DNA of 44,281 bases, taken from sequence record MW862804; one strand, given 5' to 3'. The translations under genes were made by a program, and so were the position numbers. This DNA comes from Escherichia phage UAE_MI-01. A model generated the notes under the pieces. It made no database searches. It was not told the origin of the DNA and worked only from the letters and a program-made list of their open reading frames with translations. Below are positions 1 through 44,177 of this stretch, piece by piece (position 1 is the first letter of the stretch; each line of letters opens with the position of its first letter).

Positions 1-280
1 TCTGAAAGACTGGGCTTTGTCCCGCCTGTCCCGATCGGCTAAAACCCGCGGCAGCACTGGCGGGGACAGGGGTGCTGTCCCGCTTTGTCCCGCCTCATTC
101 TGTCCCGCTTTTTGTCCCGCTTAGTTTATGCAATAAAACTGCATAACTATTCACATTTTGGGGGCGGGACAGATCGGGACAGCACCCCTGTCCCGCTTTT
201 AATTTATGCAATTGTGGTGAGTAAATATGCAGTTTTAGAGGTGCGGGACAAAACGGGACGTCCCGCCTGTCCCGCTCCGT
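1..280. repeat. Noncoding module copy A (right part): 13-nt mini-hairpin TCTGAAAGACTGG, array of at least 12 GTCCCGC/GCGGGAC heptamers, palindrome TTATGCA-ataaaac-TGCATAA at 126..146
   Basis: Direct reading; heptamers at 19-25, 77-83, 87-93, 102-108, 114-120, 164-170, 190-196, 243-249, 260-266, 269-275; near-identical to 16698..16850. Confidence 0.85.
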
Positions 281-956
281 TATGCGGGGTTCTGCCGCGC
301 CATTTCATCCAGCGCAACGCGTTCCATTAGCTTGATATATTTAAACGCACGTTGCGCGTTTTCGATGCCGTGCATCTTAAATAGCCATTCCAGTACGCCG
401 TAGTCGATGCCGTATGCGCCGCCGAATCCGGTACGCCATTGCGTGGCGCAATCGGTGAAGACTGCGACTATCTTCGCATTGTCGGGCCATATCGCAACAG
501 GCGGACAAACATCTTCGGGGGCCGCACCCCATAAACTTGCGGCTAAATCTTCGGAGGGTGGCGGCGGGCCATAAAAGCGTCGCGCCGCCTCAATTAGTTT
601 TTTTCACGCAGGCCCATCAGTTCGAGATAGTACGACGTGTGGAACACACCGAACGCGCGAGGGTAGTTAACCACCAGGCGGCGGACGTTCTCCGCGTTAA
701 ATTCATCTGGCAGATTCCAGCCTTCAGCGACGTGCATGATGGCCTCGACCATAACGTTAAATCCTTCCGGGTCGTTGTCGTCGTATTCCGACAGCTTGCG
801 CTCCGTGTCCTGCATGGTCTGCGAAAACTCGTCGATCGGACGGTGGCGTACTGTAAACGTCATTTTTCCCGGTTCGTTCTCACCAGGGCGCGGGATCTCA
901 ATCGGCAGCTTAAAAGTCGGCTTAGGGTCAAGTGTAAAGAGTGGTGCTTTAGCCAT
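280..956 (-). CDS. Tail assembly chaperone, -1 frameshift-extended form (lambda G-T-like fusion)
   Basis: Slippery heptamer A_AAA_AAC (minus strand, plus 597..603) two codons before the G stop; the -1 frame stays open for about 105 further codons to TAA at 280..282; position between major tail protein and TMP. Confidence 0.6.
594..956 (-). CDS. Tail assembly chaperone (lambda gpG-like), short form
   Basis: ATG at 956 with GGAGAA RBS just after a terminator hairpin; acidic small protein directly downstream of major tail protein gene. Confidence 0.6.
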   Translation of the reverse strand: MAKAPLFTLDPKPTFKLPIEIPRPGENEPGKMTFTVRHRPIDEFSQTMQDTERKLSEYDDNDPEGFNVMVEAIMHVAEGWNLPDEFNAENVRRLVVNYPRAFGVFHTSYYLELMGLREKN

Positions 957-960
957 TGTA

Positions 961-984
961 GTATTCTCCAATAAAAAGGGGCCG
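961..984 (-). terminator. Rho-independent terminator/attenuator between major tail protein and chaperone genes
   Basis: Minus-strand hairpin GGGGCCAGCACGGCCCC followed by TTTTTAT. Confidence 0.6.
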
Positions 985-1024
985 TGCTGGCCCCATATTA
1001 TCACTCGCTATTTAAGCGACCAAA

Positions 1025-1750
1025 TCAAGACAATGCCTCGACCAGATCCTTACGGTAGATAACCATATCAGACTGCATGGTCAGAGTGGACTCCACCGTC
1101 TCCACGTTGTTTACTTCAGCCGATGGAATCTTCCGGAAAGACACTTTAGCCGGGTAAATGCGGATCTCACCTTTGCCGCTTGCCGCTGCCGGGTTAGTGA
1201 ACTTGATCACAGTAGTTTTCTGTGTGTCGTCCAGGTCTTCCAGAATCGGGCGGATCGGGTCTTCTTCGTCGTGGGTGAAGGTGTAAGTCTGGACCAACGG
1301 GTTTTTCGTGGTGTTCAGACTAATCGCGGTATTCACCTGCAACGGCTGGAAGGTAGTAGTCTGCTGGTCGCCACCAGACACGGCGACGTTAGTGATAAAC
1401 GGGAAGTCGATAAAGCCCGACACCTTCACCACCTCGCCTGGTGTGCCTACGCCGAAAGCACCGGTAGGATATTTGGTAACGTCCGAGGTGTCGAAGCGCG
1501 CCAGTGTAACGTCGTTAGTCGCCACTTTACCCACGATGAACGCGCGGTTCAGCGCACGGACCCACGGGGTTTTAGTGAACATAACCACGTCACCAACTTG
1601 CAGGCCATGAGAAGCCGCGCAGGTGATAACGCAACCTTTCGTAAGATCAGAGATCGACGCGGCGGCGTTGGTAGCTGCCGTAACAGCGATGCCGTCGCCC
1701 AGTACGGACCCAATCTGGACGCTAGACCCGTTAGGAAGTTGATAACCCAT
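1025..1750 (-). CDS. Major tail (tube) protein
   Basis: 241 aa; AGGAG RBS; position upstream of G/GT chaperone and followed by terminator, typical for highly expressed tail tube gene. Confidence 0.65.
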   Translation of the reverse strand: MGYQLPNGSSVQIGSVLGDGIAVTAATNAAASISDLTKGCVITCAASHGLQVGDVVMFTKTPWVRALNRAFIVGKVATNDVTLARFDTSDVTKYPTGAFGVGTPGEVVKVSGFIDFPFITNVAVSGGDQQTTTFQPLQVNTAISLNTTKNPLVQTYTFTHDEEDPIRPILEDLDDTQKTTVIKFTNPAAASGKGEIRIYPAKVSFRKIPSAEVNNVETVESTLTMQSDMVIYRKDLVEALS

Positions 1751-16659: not shown

Positions 16660-16850
16660 CAGTCTCAGACGAGGGGGGTGACAGACCCCCCGTCTAGTCT
16701 GAAAGACTGGGGTTTGTCCCGCTTGTCCCGCCCCCCCCCAGGCCGCGTCATCCGTGGGTGGGACGGGGTGCTGTCCCGCTTTGTCCCGCCCCTGGTCTGT
16801 CCCGCTTTTTGTCCCGCTTAGTTTATGCAGTTTTATTGCATAACTATGCA
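16660..16850. repeat. Noncoding module copy B: hairpin, mini-hairpin, GTCCCGC heptamer array (6-7 copies), C9 homopolymer, palindrome TTATGCA-gttttat-TGCATAA at 16823..16843
   Basis: Direct reading; about 85-90% identical to the junction copy over the conserved core. Confidence 0.85.
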
Positions 16851-16902
16851 CTATATTCACACTACACGGCAACCAATGCGACCGCCTAAAAGCCCATAAA
16901 AT

Positions 16903-16983
16903 GGCAACCAATGCGCGCAAAATTTAATCATTTACCGATATGGGAATTCCCATAACGGCAACCAATGCGCGCAAAATTTAATC
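16903..16983. repeat. Two 27-bp direct repeats GGCAACCAATGCGCGCAAAATTTAATC (16903..16929, 16957..16983) flanking a perfect 16-bp palindrome TATGGGAATTCCCATA (16939..16954); third partial copy at 16868..16882
   Basis: Direct reading; lies at and just beyond the 3' end of the primase gene. Confidence 0.8.
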
Positions 16984-19242
16984 TTTTAAATCGTCATCGG
17001 TCGCTGAAAGCGTGATAGGGATATCCGATTTGATGACCAAATTAGACGACCCATAGATGGCCCCGGTGTGCGGATCGGTATAGAAACCTATCACTCCGCG
17101 CTCCACCATATCGTCGATTGCCTTCGTCGAAGTGCCACCTTTTGCGAGTCCCGCCTGGCGGACGATTGCCGATTTACTGAATCCGGTATGGTCCGGGTTA
17201 TCTTCCATCAGTTTTTCCAGTGCCGCATAAAGCACTTTCTCTTTTTCATTGCGCGGTCCGGCGGTGTTCTCTTCCTTAACTGCGGCCTTGCCTGCTGCCT
17301 TCGCCTGTTCGATGGCGAACGGTGCCAGGGCAACCGGTACAAGATACAGCGTCTCATCGCGCGGGGTGGATGCAATCGGCTTGACGTCCCAACCGGCAAC
17401 CACATCTCCGAAGTCTGGCCCGGTGCTGGTGGACTGGTGTGCCTCGAACGCTTCTGACTTGCGGAGATCCACCTTAACTTTGCACTTGAGCAGGACGAAG
17501 CCGCGCGGCGCTTGCTTGATGCCGTTACGTGACTTTTCGTGATACAGGTTCAATTGTCCGGGCTGGTTGTCGTCCGGCTGTTCCAGGAAGAAAGCGGAAT
17601 CGACAGCACCATGCAGCGCGCCGGACCCGCGTGGGGTTCTGCTGCCGTTTGCACCTTTCGCCGGGTGGTGAATGACGCCCGCACTGCCACCTGTGTTTTC
17701 CGCGATGGCCTTCAGAGCTTTGACCACTTCGCCCATATCGCTGGCGTTGTTCTCGTCGAACGGTTTAGCATCGGCGGACCGCAACGCAACCGTCTGGTTG
17801 AGTGAGTCGAACGCCACCAGGCCAACCGGCTCGCCGTTAGCGGTGCGGTTGATAAAGCTGATAACTTCACGCAAGCCAGATTTGCTGGTGATATCCCAGC
17901 CGCGGGATTGCAGATCGATAATGTGCAGCTTGTCCAGGTCGTGCTCGTATTTAATCTGCAATGCTTCTTTACGCTGGTTGGAGGCTTCACCACCTTCCGC
18001 GTCGAAATAGAAGCAATGAGACTGGACGACCTTCGCACCGCCGAACGGGATCCCTGCGGCAACCGCGCCCATTTGGCCCAGCACATAGAAAGACTTACCG
18101 ATATTCGACTCACCCGCCATGTACCAGGTCGATTTAAAGTTAATCAACCCCTCGATAATCGGGTCGTGCTTACTGAACAGCGCGACCGGCTCGTTATCCA
18201 GATCCGCATCGGTGCACACGCCGTATTCTTCGCCGTCGCCAACCGCATCAACAATATGTTCGTATAAGGATTCGACTTCCTCGTCGTCCAGCCCCGGAAG
18301 GATGGCGGCGATTTGCTTGCGCGACATGTTGTGTGGCTCGACGTTCAGGTGGTCCGGGATCCCGATAAGACGCAGCGCCAGGTGCTGGTGTCTGTTCAGT
18401 TCCGAGCAACACTCGTTGCCGGTGTGCATACACTTGAAACGGATCTCGCCATCCTTGACCATAATGGCGGTGGACCCTTCGCCGCTGTGCAGATGTTCGT
18501 TCGGGCACGGCACTTCATAACCGCGACCGGAAGATAACTCCTCGAATCCTGCCTGGAAGCACCAGTCCAGAATGCCGTCTGCCACTGCGTCGTCGCCCTG
18601 GGTCAGTTCGCGGCGGACTTCCTCTTTCTCAACTCCCAGCTTGTCCGCCAGGCGGAGCAGACGACGGACGCGGGCGCGCTTGCCATAGTGGCATTTAATA
18701 ACAGACTGCTGGTGTGGCAGGTACATCAGGCGGTTTGTGTCTTTCGTGCAGTCGTCGAAGTCCACATCTGACAGGCCCAGTTGGTGTAATAGCGCATACT
18801 GGACACGGCCCAGGTCTTCAGCCGGTACAGGCTTGTCAGTGAGTACCAGGAATCGAGCGCAACGCGTGCCGCCTTTCAGTGGGTGACGGTCGCCGGTTGT
18901 GGTGTGGAAGACGTGCTCCAGCCCCGCGTCAGTGAACGCCTTACGGCAACGGCGTAAAGTGCGGGTGTCGGTGCGGTCAATATCGAAGAACAGGATCGAG
19001 CGGTCCACCGCACTGGTCTTACGACGCAATCCGTCACTGGTATACGCCACGATGCCGTCGGCCTTACGCTTGCGGCGCGCATACTCGGCTTTATCTTCTG
19101 TCTTGTTGATATGCACCGAGGAGATTTCTTTCGCATCTTTGATAAATTCGAAAAATTCATCGGTGGTCATCTGGAAGTTTTCCGCCCTGGCTTTTTCGCC
19201 TTTTTTAGCGGGTCTTGTTACAGCGAATTTAATTAAGCTCAT
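16978..19242 (-). CDS. Bifunctional primase-polymerase / P-loop (RecA/DnaB-like) replicative NTPase
   Basis: 754 aa; N-terminal FFDIDR-type primase-polymerase motif, Cys/His zinc-binding cluster, Walker A GESNIGKS in C-terminal half. Confidence 0.7.
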   Translation of the reverse strand: MSLIKFAVTRPAKKGEKARAENFQMTTDEFFEFIKDAKEISSVHINKTEDKAEYARRKRKADGIVAYTSDGLRRKTSAVDRSILFFDIDRTDTRTLRRCRKAFTDAGLEHVFHTTTGDRHPLKGGTRCARFLVLTDKPVPAEDLGRVQYALLHQLGLSDVDFDDCTKDTNRLMYLPHQQSVIKCHYGKRARVRRLLRLADKLGVEKEEVRRELTQGDDAVADGILDWCFQAGFEELSSGRGYEVPCPNEHLHSGEGSTAIMVKDGEIRFKCMHTGNECCSELNRHQHLALRLIGIPDHLNVEPHNMSRKQIAAILPGLDDEEVESLYEHIVDAVGDGEEYGVCTDADLDNEPVALFSKHDPIIEGLINFKSTWYMAGESNIGKSFYVLGQMGAVAAGIPFGGAKVVQSHCFYFDAEGGEASNQRKEALQIKYEHDLDKLHIIDLQSRGWDITSKSGLREVISFINRTANGEPVGLVAFDSLNQTVALRSADAKPFDENNASDMGEVVKALKAIAENTGGSAGVIHHPAKGANGSRTPRGSGALHGAVDSAFFLEQPDDNQPGQLNLYHEKSRNGIKQAPRGFVLLKCKVKVDLRKSEAFEAHQSTSTGPDFGDVVAGWDVKPIASTPRDETLYLVPVALAPFAIEQAKAAGKAAVKEENTAGPRNEKEKVLYAALEKLMEDNPDHTGFSKSAIVRQAGLAKGGTSTKAIDDMVERGVIGFYTDPHTGAIYGSSNLVIKSDIPITLSATDDDLKD

Positions 19243-41534: not shown

Positions 41535-44177
41535 TCATCGTTTATAAAGTACACCACCCGGTTTCGTTGCCTTCACGATCTCGGACTTCACCGCCTCGGT
41601 GATCTGCTTGCCGAACGCCTGCGCGGTACGGGGGTCCGGCCCGCTGACACTGGTATCCGTTTTACCGGTACCCGTGTAAACGTTAGTCGTCACGACCATA
41701 CCCCCGCCTGCGCCAGACGCGGCAACGCCCAGTTTCCCGTCCGGCCCGCGCTTCAGTGGCATGATGGCCTCGGGACCAGCCTCGCCCATCAATCCTGCGC
41801 CCTTAGCGAACGCCTGGACGCCATAACTGAAAAAGGTAGGCTGGCTTACCACTTTCCCCGAATAGGCCGCGAGATTGCCTCCTGCGTACGCTCCGCCGTC
41901 CGCATTCTTGGTGAGGCCCGAGAAGATAGCGCCGAACAATCCGTTTTTGCCGCCGTCGCCACCAAAAGCGCTAACGATCGACTTGAAAGCCTGCGAGGTA
42001 GCCAGCTTGATTAATTCGCTCAGGATGGACTTAACCATATCCTTTGCGTTCAGCTTGCCCGTCTCGAAAAACTCGTTCATCGTGTCTTGCATAGCGCTGA
42101 ACGTGAATTTTGTGAGCGTCGTCATCTGCGTATATCCGTTACCCATATCATCCACACTATCCTTAAGCCCGCGGCTGAAGCCATCCCATAGCGAGGCGTT
42201 AGCTCCGGTCTGTGCTTCCTGCACTTCGCGCAGCTTAGACACCGCCTTGTCTATATCGGTATCGTTAGCGCCAACCCGCTTCAGGCGATCAATTAGCTGC
42301 AATTCTTCGCGCAGGTTTGCCGCTTCGCGAGTGGAAAGCGCATACCCCGCGGCGGTGGCTTTTAGTTCGGCGTTCTGGTTCTTAACGAAGGCATCGATCT
42401 GCGCGTGCGCCTTAACCTGCTGCTCTTTCGCATCCAGCAATTTGGCTTCTTCGACGATCTGCTCGCGGACTTCCTTCACGCGCCCGAACTCGACTAATTG
42501 CTGCTTTTCTGCTGCCGTTAGCGCTCTTTCTTTGCTCGCAGCGATTAACTGCTCATTGTCGGCGATCAGCTTGTTTAAGGCCGCTTGAGCGCGTTGCGTG
42601 CGGGTCTGCGTAGACGCGTTGGCTTCGATCTGCTTGCCGGATTCTCGAAGCTGGGCCAGTTCGCTCCGTGCGACTTCCAGCATTTTCATACCGGCATCCA
42701 CGCGAACAGCCGCGGCCTTCTTCGGGGCGGGATCTTTGTAGCGCTCGTTTACCTGCTTCACCGCCTCGGCAAGCTCTTTCTCGTCAATAACGCCACGCTT
42801 ATTCAGCAAATTGAGACGGGCGATCTCGTCGGCGCGCTTCTTCGCGTTAGTTGCGTACTCCTTCTCGAACGCGGCGCGGTCGCGAGCGGTGCGGTTGGCC
42901 TCCTCGTTCGCCTTTGCGGATTCGTCCGCGGCACGGGCGTTGTCGCGCTCCGCACGGTTACGCAGGGTGAGCGACGCCACTACTTTCTCCTGGGCGACCA
43001 GTTCGCTGTAAAGCATGTTAATACGCGCTTTCTGCGCTTCAGTCATTACCCCACCGGCAGCGTTTACCGCTTTCATCTCGGCATAGTAAGCCGTGGTTAG
43101 TCGCTGCAATGACTCACGCGCTTTCATCTCAGATTCATTGGAGGACTGCGCGCGGCCCACATCCAGGATGGCGTCCCACATTGATTTGGCTGCCGATGTG
43201 ACGCCGTTCATCGACCGCTCAAGCGTACCCATGTTGGACTTGATTTCATTGGTCATGCTGGTGAACGACGCAGCGGCTGTTTTGTTAGCCAACGCAACTG
43301 CGTCTGTCTCACGACCCGCATCAACGAGCGACTGTACCTGCTGGATCTGCGCTTCGTTTACGACGTGATACTTATCCGCCAGCGCACGCAGTCCGCCAAC
43401 GGGGTCGGTTGACAGCTTCGCCACAGCCGCTACCACATCCTCGATCGGCTGGCTGGACACCTTCGCGAAGTCATTCACTACCTTAGCCAATGCGCCGAAG
43501 TCACCACCCGCTTTCACACCTGCCGCCGCCAGCGCCTGGATTGTGTCACGCGTCTTGCGAAATGACCCGCCCATGCGCTCGGCGTTCTCGGACAGCACCA
43601 GGATCTGGTTAGCGGTGAGGCCGGAGATATTACCAGACAGCGCCAGCGTCTTGTTAAGCGCTGCCACCTGGTTCTCTGCTCGGGACGTAATTGCCACGCC
43701 CACGCCTAAAGTCGCCGTTACAGCGGTGAGGCCGATCCCTACGGGGCCGAGGAAGCCCGCAACATACCGAAGCGTGTTACCCAGTCCGCCAAATGCGCCG
43801 GTTAGCTGTGGTAACTGCTGAAGCATGACGCGGTGCACCGGCATACCCATCTCAAGCGTAACCGCGATATCCTGTAACTGGAATGCGGCGTTACGCGAGG
43901 CAAAGCCCAAGTTTTTTGTCGACATGCCTAATCGGCTGGCGAGTCGCTCCTGTTTCGTCATGCCGTCGGCGGCGCGCTGCGATTCAGTCGCTAACTTTTC
44001 CATTCCGCCCGCGGCGTCGCCAGTAACCTTTTTCGACTTGCCGAGTGTGTCGTTTAATTTTTTTACTTTCTGTTCTGTGTTCTCGGATTTCTGCGCAAAT
44101 GTGTCCAGCACAGTATTAGCCGTTTTAATTTGCGCGACGTCCGCCTTGAGCGTGATGCCCGCTGCCTGATCTGCCAT
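41535..44177 (-). CDS. Tail tape measure protein
   Basis: 880 aa, Ala/Gln/Lys-rich predicted coiled coil with Gly-rich hydrophobic segments near N-terminus; follows chaperone genes across the window junction. Confidence 0.85.
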   Translation of the reverse strand: MADQAAGITLKADVAQIKTANTVLDTFAQKSENTEQKVKKLNDTLGKSKKVTGDAAGGMEKLATESQRAADGMTKQERLASRLGMSTKNLGFASRNAAFQLQDIAVTLEMGMPVHRVMLQQLPQLTGAFGGLGNTLRYVAGFLGPVGIGLTAVTATLGVGVAITSRAENQVAALNKTLALSGNISGLTANQILVLSENAERMGGSFRKTRDTIQALAAAGVKAGGDFGALAKVVNDFAKVSSQPIEDVVAAVAKLSTDPVGGLRALADKYHVVNEAQIQQVQSLVDAGRETDAVALANKTAAASFTSMTNEIKSNMGTLERSMNGVTSAAKSMWDAILDVGRAQSSNESEMKARESLQRLTTAYYAEMKAVNAAGGVMTEAQKARINMLYSELVAQEKVVASLTLRNRAERDNARAADESAKANEEANRTARDRAAFEKEYATNAKKRADEIARLNLLNKRGVIDEKELAEAVKQVNERYKDPAPKKAAAVRVDAGMKMLEVARSELAQLRESGKQIEANASTQTRTQRAQAALNKLIADNEQLIAASKERALTAAEKQQLVEFGRVKEVREQIVEEAKLLDAKEQQVKAHAQIDAFVKNQNAELKATAAGYALSTREAANLREELQLIDRLKRVGANDTDIDKAVSKLREVQEAQTGANASLWDGFSRGLKDSVDDMGNGYTQMTTLTKFTFSAMQDTMNEFFETGKLNAKDMVKSILSELIKLATSQAFKSIVSAFGGDGGKNGLFGAIFSGLTKNADGGAYAGGNLAAYSGKVVSQPTFFSYGVQAFAKGAGLMGEAGPEAIMPLKRGPDGKLGVAASGAGGGMVVTTNVYTGTGKTDTSVSGPDPRTAQAFGKQITEAVKSEIVKATKPGGVLYKR

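Follow-up and report, generated by a model that had tools for sequence, protein, structure and literature searches.

At the end of its tail assembly chaperone gene, Escherichia phage UAE_MI-01 carries a slippery heptamer, A_AAA_AAC, on which a classical programmed -1 ribosomal frameshift would give a 225-amino acid (aa) GT fusion beside the 120-aa G protein, a reading to which we assign a probability of about 0.9 on the strength of the sequence and its relatives. The site is an ordinary G/GT frameshift site with a textbook mechanism, that of phage lambda G/GT; it has already been noted for the T1-like and eiAU relatives of this phage and is mostly unannotated in public Dhillonvirus records.

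The window analysed is the whole 44,281-nucleotide (nt) stretch of sequence record MW862804, and descending coordinates follow its minus strand. It is a Dhillonvirus genome, that of an HK578/SSL-2009a-like coliphage (an E. coli siphophage), and 150 phage records align with its first 1800 bases across 80% or more of the length, nearly all at 90-95% identity. The window opens in the middle of the tail module, with T ending at 280 and the tape measure ATG at 44177 (minus strand); because this module crosses the origin, the window appears to be a complete genome, circularly permuted and opened at an arbitrary point. The features of interest are as follows.

1025..1750, minus strand: major tail (tube) protein gene, a 241-aa ORF assigned by synteny with annotated CDS of SSL-2009a, Pandora71, EE09 and HK578
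594..956, minus strand: G-like tail assembly chaperone gene (0 frame), 120 aa plus TAA, Phage_TAC_4 family
604..606, minus strand: TGA of the -1 frame, which closes that frame on the upstream side and leaves a usable overlap of 7 nt
597..603, minus strand: slippery heptamer A_AAA_AAC, 0-frame codons AAA (Lys) and AAC (Asn), the proposed -1 shift site
594..596, minus strand: 0-frame stop TAA, directly 3' of the heptamer, a possible 'shifty stop' contributor
560..589, minus strand: candidate stimulatory hairpin, stem GGCGGCG (589..583) / CGCCGCC (566..560) with a 16-nt loop, starting 7 nt past the heptamer
280..597, minus strand: T-like -1 frame extension, 105 codons plus TAA at 282..280
41535..44177, minus strand: tape measure protein gene (880 aa), the predicted G/GT client, across the window origin and about 384 nt downstream of the T stop

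The slip site and the two reading frames

On the minus strand the 3' end of the chaperone ORF reads ...CTG CGT GAA AAA AAC TAA TTG AGG..., and the canonical slippery heptamer that an earlier note on this DNA had recognized near the end of the gene lies in frame at 603..597. That note had placed the heptamer two codons before the stop, whereas the two codons with which it ends are also the final sense codons of the gene, and it directly adjoins TAA. The 0 and -1 frames overlap by 7 nt only, all of which the heptamer occupies, and because of the TGA at 606..604 a -1 shift can join the two frames only within this overlap. Downstream, the -1 frame had been described as open for about 105 codons, and exactly 105 codons were read before TAA at 282..280. 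Counted from the C of the heptamer, the translation of the extension starts LIEAARRFYGPPPPSEDL...GIDYGVLEWLFKMHGIEN... and ends ARQNPA; its first ATG, GTG or TTG stands at 375 (codon 76), about 75 codons beyond the slip site. The predicted GT fusion, join(956..597, 597..280) on the minus strand, is 225 aa long.

In the long ORFs of the window, the frequency of in-frame X_XXY_YYZ heptamers is about 0.0019 per codon, which gives a chance of about 0.004 that one falls at the two usable codon positions. The chance of a 105-codon open -1 frame is about 0.002, at a stop frequency of 5.8% that was taken from the -1 frames inside three long genes of the window; the length of the -1 frame past the stops of all ORFs was unsuitable as a null, since it is contaminated by genuine downstream genes (23% reach at least 100 codons). 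Over the two strands of the 44-kb window together, the string AAAAAAC is present in only 4 copies, where 8.2 would be expected. Near its 5' end the tape measure gene also contains an in-frame A_AAA_AAC and A_AAA_AAA, at 43917..43911 and at 44064..44058 on the minus strand; a stop ends the -1 frame 6 codons past the first and 24 codons past the second. These two heptamers are probably of no consequence, and their occurrence means that an in-frame heptamer by itself is not diagnostic.

Gene order and protein families

Read along the minus strand, the genes follow in the order major tail (1750..1025), G (956..594), T (to 280) and tape measure (44177..41535), and the same order is annotated in SSL-2009a, Pandora71, EE09 and HK578. 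The spacer between the T stop and the tape measure gene is non-coding and crosses the window origin; in SSL-2009a the syntenic tape measure CDS, of 2640 nt, lies 385 nt past the T stop.

Each half of the predicted fusion holds a full-length Pfam domain. Residues 1-120 of G align with profile positions 1-124 of the 124 of Pfam PF08748 (Phage_TAC_4) at E 9e-24 and 84.5 bits (gathering threshold 21.1), and G matches phrog_569 in PHROGs at E 1e-40. Residues 25-101 of the -1 extension align with positions 1-80 of the 80 of PF08809 (DUF1799) at E 2.2e-20 and 73.1 bits (gathering threshold 26), and its PHROGs match is phrog_680, at E 2e-29. A single profile, phrog_17368 (213 positions), spans both halves, since G matches its positions 1-107 and T its positions 149-212. 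A Pfam scan at E up to 1 returned PF08748 only for G, and PF08809 together with a sub-threshold RecA_dep_nuc match for T, with no lambda-type G/T family. The PDB sequence search and NCBIfam gave no match for the chaperone or the extension, and a homology search with the 225-aa fusion as query returned only two 125-aa G-only proteins. The earlier note had proposed a G-T-type fusion, with which gene position, the Phage_TAC_4 and DUF1799 domains, the slip site, codon periodicity and conservation all agree.

Coding evidence and conservation among relatives

Among 19 unique Dhillonvirus sequences, the variable sites of the extension are distributed 68/23/9 over codon positions 3/1/2 of the -1 frame, to be compared with 76/10/6 for the upstream G gene in its own frame. 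Because the variable sites follow the codon periodicity of the -1 frame, the extension is taken to be translated, and the pattern indicates that purifying selection acts on this frame. In the same sequences the 27 nt around the slip site, from -12 to +15 and including the heptamer, are invariant.

Beyond the genus, four loci whose G protein is 42-56% identical retain CGN GAA AAA AAC T(A/G)A, and the change from TAA to TGA in these loci is synonymous in the T frame (CTA ATT to CTG ATA, both Leu-Ile). With the extension as query, tblastn found 1044 phage records, in which the match typically begins at the first residue past the junction, and in the distant relatives that were read T homology likewise begins right at the junction. 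The same architecture was found in 13/13 annotated phages of other genera that were read, with three types of slip site in one place. A_AAA_AAC is used in eiAU and in 5/6 of the T1-like Drexlerviridae read, so that its carriers among distant relatives comprise eiAU, Tunavirus, Warwickvirus, Tlsvirus and Henuseptimavirus; G_GGA_AAC is found in the Ralstonia, Vibrio and Stenotrophomonas phages read; and CAA_AAG is found in Klebsiella phage KPJD2 and Enterobacter phage ST22, with GCA_AAG in the T1-like Rogunavirus e4/1c. These A_AAG-type variants (three or four phages) have no X_XXY_YYZ heptamer, and their site sits one codon ahead of the final sense codon; they retain the 0-frame stop at the same T-frame position. 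Judged from these motifs, the shift in KPJD2, ST22 and e4/1c would be of the A_AAG type, with a single tRNA-Lys.

A survey of metagenomic relatives in IMG/VR, which was seeded with an alignment of T segments and counted non-identical loci, found an in-frame heptamer adjoining the 0-frame stop in 74/74 loci (72 A_AAA_AAC and 2 G_GGA_AAC). There are 0 codons between heptamer and stop in all of these loci, as in every heptamer-bearing annotated phage that was read. Every relative examined keeps the architecture, even where protein identity falls to about 30%. The identity of the slip site thus changes while its slipperiness and position are retained, as is predicted for a functional shift site.

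Two of the records recovered, MG065648.1 (Campylobacter phage A144) and MG065688.1 (A110b), are labelled as Campylobacter jejuni phages and contain sequence that is 93% identical to the coliphage tail region studied here, or a T segment with homology to this one (33% protein identity). Their Campylobacter label likely reflects contamination or a mis-assigned host.

Alternative explanations

The T ORF could be a separate gene with its own start, either at the ATT that overlaps the G stop or at internal ATG or GTG codons. Existing records lean this way: HK578 gp16 is annotated as a separate CDS from the A of the G stop (ATT), others call short ORFs over the last 31-90 codons of T, and a separate 103-aa DUF1799 protein is listed for VarioGold (PMC9658991). 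An independent start is nevertheless highly improbable, since the T frame lacks ATG, GTG and TTG for about 75 codons, no Shine-Dalgarno sequence precedes the ATT, and relatives have AAA, AAG, ATC, GAA, ATA or AGG in place of the ATT. A separately initiated T gene in orthologs, which the earlier note had named as the observation that would speak against a fusion, was looked for, and no conserved T-frame start was found in relatives, the first start-like codon wandering from 7 to 74 codons past the junction. The ORFs that have been called would, in addition, cut the conserved DUF1799 domain, which matches from extension residue 25, and an independent start leaves the heptamer adjoining the stop in 74/74 loci unexplained.

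It is also conceivable that the frame is changed in the transcript, with RNA polymerase adding one A within the seven consecutive A of the site, which would place T in frame (...REKK-LIEA...); A-rich motifs are indeed common at both transcriptional and ribosomal slip sites (PMC3711429). Relatives of the same architecture, however, have 6 A (GTA/GCA/CGA AAA AAC), G_GGA_AAC or CAA_AAG, which are too short for the polymerase and fit tRNA re-pairing, and a transcriptional mechanism leaves the conserved 3' C and the adjoining stop without a function. For E. coli RNA polymerase to slip efficiently, a run of at least about 9 is required, and the A run here is 7. Transcriptional slippage is therefore very unlikely to account for the fusion and, because relatives have no usable homopolymer, would be at most a minor contributor here. 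An artefact or decay reading, in which a homopolymer sequencing error or a frameshift mutation split a G-T gene, or in which T is a non-coding remnant open by chance, might appeal to the error-prone nature of homopolymer runs and to the missing annotation of the T region in most records. It is set against the two-frame arrangement in at least 143 independent Dhillonvirus records and 74/74 metagenomic relatives, the strong T-frame codon periodicity of substitutions and the Pfam match at E 2e-20. A natural in-frame G-T fusion was not found in the best 150 of 933 DUF1799 cluster representatives, which are ORFs of 38-150 aa with ragged N-termini. The comparative data already refute this last reading, whose probability is negligible, and it is on this evidence that a separately initiated T, a sequencing error and a decayed gene are all rejected in favour of a programmed -1 frameshift.

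Proposed mechanism and candidate stimulators

In the programmed -1 frameshift that we infer, the majority of ribosomes on G (956..594) would terminate at TAA (596..594) and release the 120-aa G-like chaperone. A minority would slip back one nucleotide on A_AAA_AAC (603..597), with tRNA-Lys re-pairing from AAA to AAA and tRNA-Asn from AAC to AAA; alternatively, tRNA-Asn alone might slip in the P site during slow reading of the adjacent stop. The shifted ribosomes would then read CTA ATT GAG... for 105 codons more, up to TAA at 282..280, to give the 225-aa fusion ...GLREKN-LIEAARRFYGPPPP.... By analogy to lambda gpG/gpGT, the G part shared by both products would coat the tape measure protein, the DUF1799 'T' part would recruit the major tail protein, and the efficiency of the shift would set a fixed, low GT:G ratio.

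How often ribosomes shift, and what helps them to do so, can be approached from the heptamer and its surroundings. In synthetic constructs tested in E. coli, shifting on A_AAA_AAC is much weaker than on A_AAA_AAG (PMC5009743), which fits a low GT:G ratio and suggests helpers, so the efficiency of the shift here may be low or depend on stimulators. A search by eye for an upstream Shine-Dalgarno-like stimulator gave no convincing candidate, the one feature noted being a conserved GGN Gly codon 11-13 nt upstream.

Two candidate helpers exist, and the first is the adjoining stop, which is conserved throughout the family. Weiss et al. are said to have found, in 1987, that adjacent stops stimulate shifts ('shifty stops'). 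Because the heptamer always adjoins the stop, and because the A_AAG variants keep the position of the stop, we tentatively suggest, as a possibility that we would not yet favour, that in the TAC_4/DUF1799 family the 0-frame stop is part of the frameshift signal, through a termination-coupled -1 slip of the P-site tRNA-Asn. If this is true, a shifty stop would compensate for the weakness of A_AAA_AAC in enterobacterial ribosomes, with the hairpin as a second stimulator.

A downstream stimulatory structure had been named in the earlier note as a point to check, and the outcome is mixed: a GC hairpin is predicted at 589..560 after a 7-nt spacer, but RNAalifold over 18 diverse relatives gave no consensus structure. 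The hairpin has a minimum free energy of -17.1 kcal/mol (z -2.0), with 8/200 shuffles equally good. In its register, pairing reaches 65% over the 18 diverse relatives; shuffles give 54% (0/500) and slid registers 29-50%. Of its pairs, 5/7 have changes on both sides, including C-G to U-A double changes. Among 26 representatives of less than 85% identity, the first 42 nt fold better than 3/4 control windows. Folding predicts a hairpin of this register for eiAU and for 4/6 T1-like phages; in Henuseptimavirus and Vibrio phage Marilyn the predicted hairpin lies one base earlier or in a shifted register, and it is missing from several relatives. It also counts against the hairpin that its arms encode conserved Ala and Pro-Pro residues. 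With no RNAalifold consensus, and with an 84-nt context that folds no better than shuffles (z -0.23), the hairpin is kept as a suggestive candidate stimulator only.

Comparison with known frameshift systems

A conserved tail-gene frameshift of the G/GT type has reportedly been described for long-tailed phages by Xu, Hendrix and Duda in 2004. The UAE_MI-01 proteins belong to Phage_TAC_4 and DUF1799 with no other above-threshold Pfam match, unlike lambda gpG/gpGT, and the pair is a functional analogue of lambda G/T, not a member of the same sequence families; here we go by the Pfam families that we take to contain lambda G and T. As in lambda, a pair of ORFs separates the major tail gene from the tape measure gene, and slippage by -1 on an X_XXY_YYZ heptamer close to the 3' end of the upstream ORF gives a minor fusion (predicted here), with roles presumed to be the same. 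For lambda, work by Levin, Hendrix and Casjens (1993) and Xu, Hendrix and Duda (2004), as cited in PMC5009743, has G binding the tape measure and T recruiting the tube protein. The systems differ in the heptamer, which is G_GGA_AAG in lambda and in UAE_MI-01 is an A_AAA_AAC that directly adjoins the 0-frame stop, and in the non-coding spacer of about 384 nt with GCGGGAC repeats that parts T from the tape measure gene in UAE_MI-01.

Closer parallels come from T1-like phages (Drexlerviridae), in which a tape measure chaperone frameshift has been annotated for Citrobacter phage Stevie (PMC4319613) and E. coli phage U136B (PMC8104045). The proteins are homologous, with T segments 33-38% identical, and A_AAA_AAC adjoins TAA in both groups, as GYA AAA AAC TAA in Shfl1, JLBYU26, Reinasaurus, Samwise and Rao1; in 4/5 of these five phages a hairpin in the same register lies 7 nt downstream. 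The T1-like phages, which belong to another genus and family, differ in that their tape measure gene follows about 40 nt after T, with no repeat spacer. For ORF22/23 of Edwardsiella phage eiAU, the conserved tail-gene frameshift has been stated to be present (PMC3025963). This close non-Dhillonvirus relative, which differs from UAE_MI-01 in host and genus, has a T protein 47% identical, reads CGC GAA AAA AAC TAA at the site and contains a GGCGG/CCGCC hairpin at the same spacing; unlike in UAE_MI-01, its T frame is already open 97 nt ahead of the G stop, and the annotated T CDS starts at a GTG within G.

Outside tail genes, the site resembles the A_AAA_AAG sites of E. coli dnaX and the IS911 type in being a -1 slip on an A-rich heptamer, which in those sites is helped by a downstream stem-loop and here has a candidate one, and differs from them in its A-site codon AAC (tRNA-Asn), which is reportedly far less shifty than AAG in E. 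coli (PMC5009743), in lacking a clear upstream Shine-Dalgarno-like stimulator and in its adjoining stop codon. A_AAA_AAC is used for g-t by the archaeal virus HCTV-2 (PMC5009743), and for another phage TAC cluster reporter assays gave a shift efficiency of 6-7% (PMC3711429). A literature search found no paper on this frameshift site in Dhillonviruses and no protein or genetic data on Dhillonvirus G/GT.

Repeats and terminator-like hairpins nearby

The extension had been thought to end inside an array of heptameric repeats, and this is not the case, as the stop at 282..280 precedes the first GCGGGAC copy (275..269) by 5 nt. That array, at 19..275, contains 10 copies in both orientations and lies in the gap between T and the tape measure gene; a second array of 7 copies is found at 16716..17154. 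The window holds 22 copies of GCGGGAC, against 8.6 +/- 3.0 expected (0/100 shuffles), and the arrays are possibly regulator-binding or stoperator-like.

Shortly past the T stop, at 264..250 (minus strand), stands a palindrome, GGGACGTCCC, followed by GTTTT, which a simple terminator scan passed over because it has only 4 T. It is probably the counterpart of the rho-independent terminator annotated just after HK578 gp16, and termination here, after GT and before the tape measure gene, would divide the tail operon. A further hairpin, GGGGCCAGCACGGCCCC with TTTTT behind it, resembles a terminator; it occupies 994..978 (minus strand), in the gap from the major tail stop to the chaperone start, and may attenuate expression downstream of the abundant tube protein.

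Annotation and implications

In most of 60 sampled Dhillonvirus records, the first 53 nt past the chaperone stop are without a feature, and a joined G-T CDS is present in 0/7 of the Dhillonvirus records that were read in detail. Across Dhillonvirus and related records the T ORF is unannotated, started internally or labelled 'tail length tape measure protein'. PHROG-based annotation gives this same name to both the chaperone and the T ORF, a systematic mislabel that is spreading in phage records.

The site opens no new biological question, and the main value of recognizing it lies in correct annotation, as a CDS marked for ribosomal slippage would yield the right 225-aa GT product. The rule that the heptamer adjoins the stop provides a simple, testable signature for annotating phages with TAC_4 and DUF1799 proteins. 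In addition, the site offers a modest test case for a 'eukaryote-style' A_AAA_AAC heptamer at work in E. coli.
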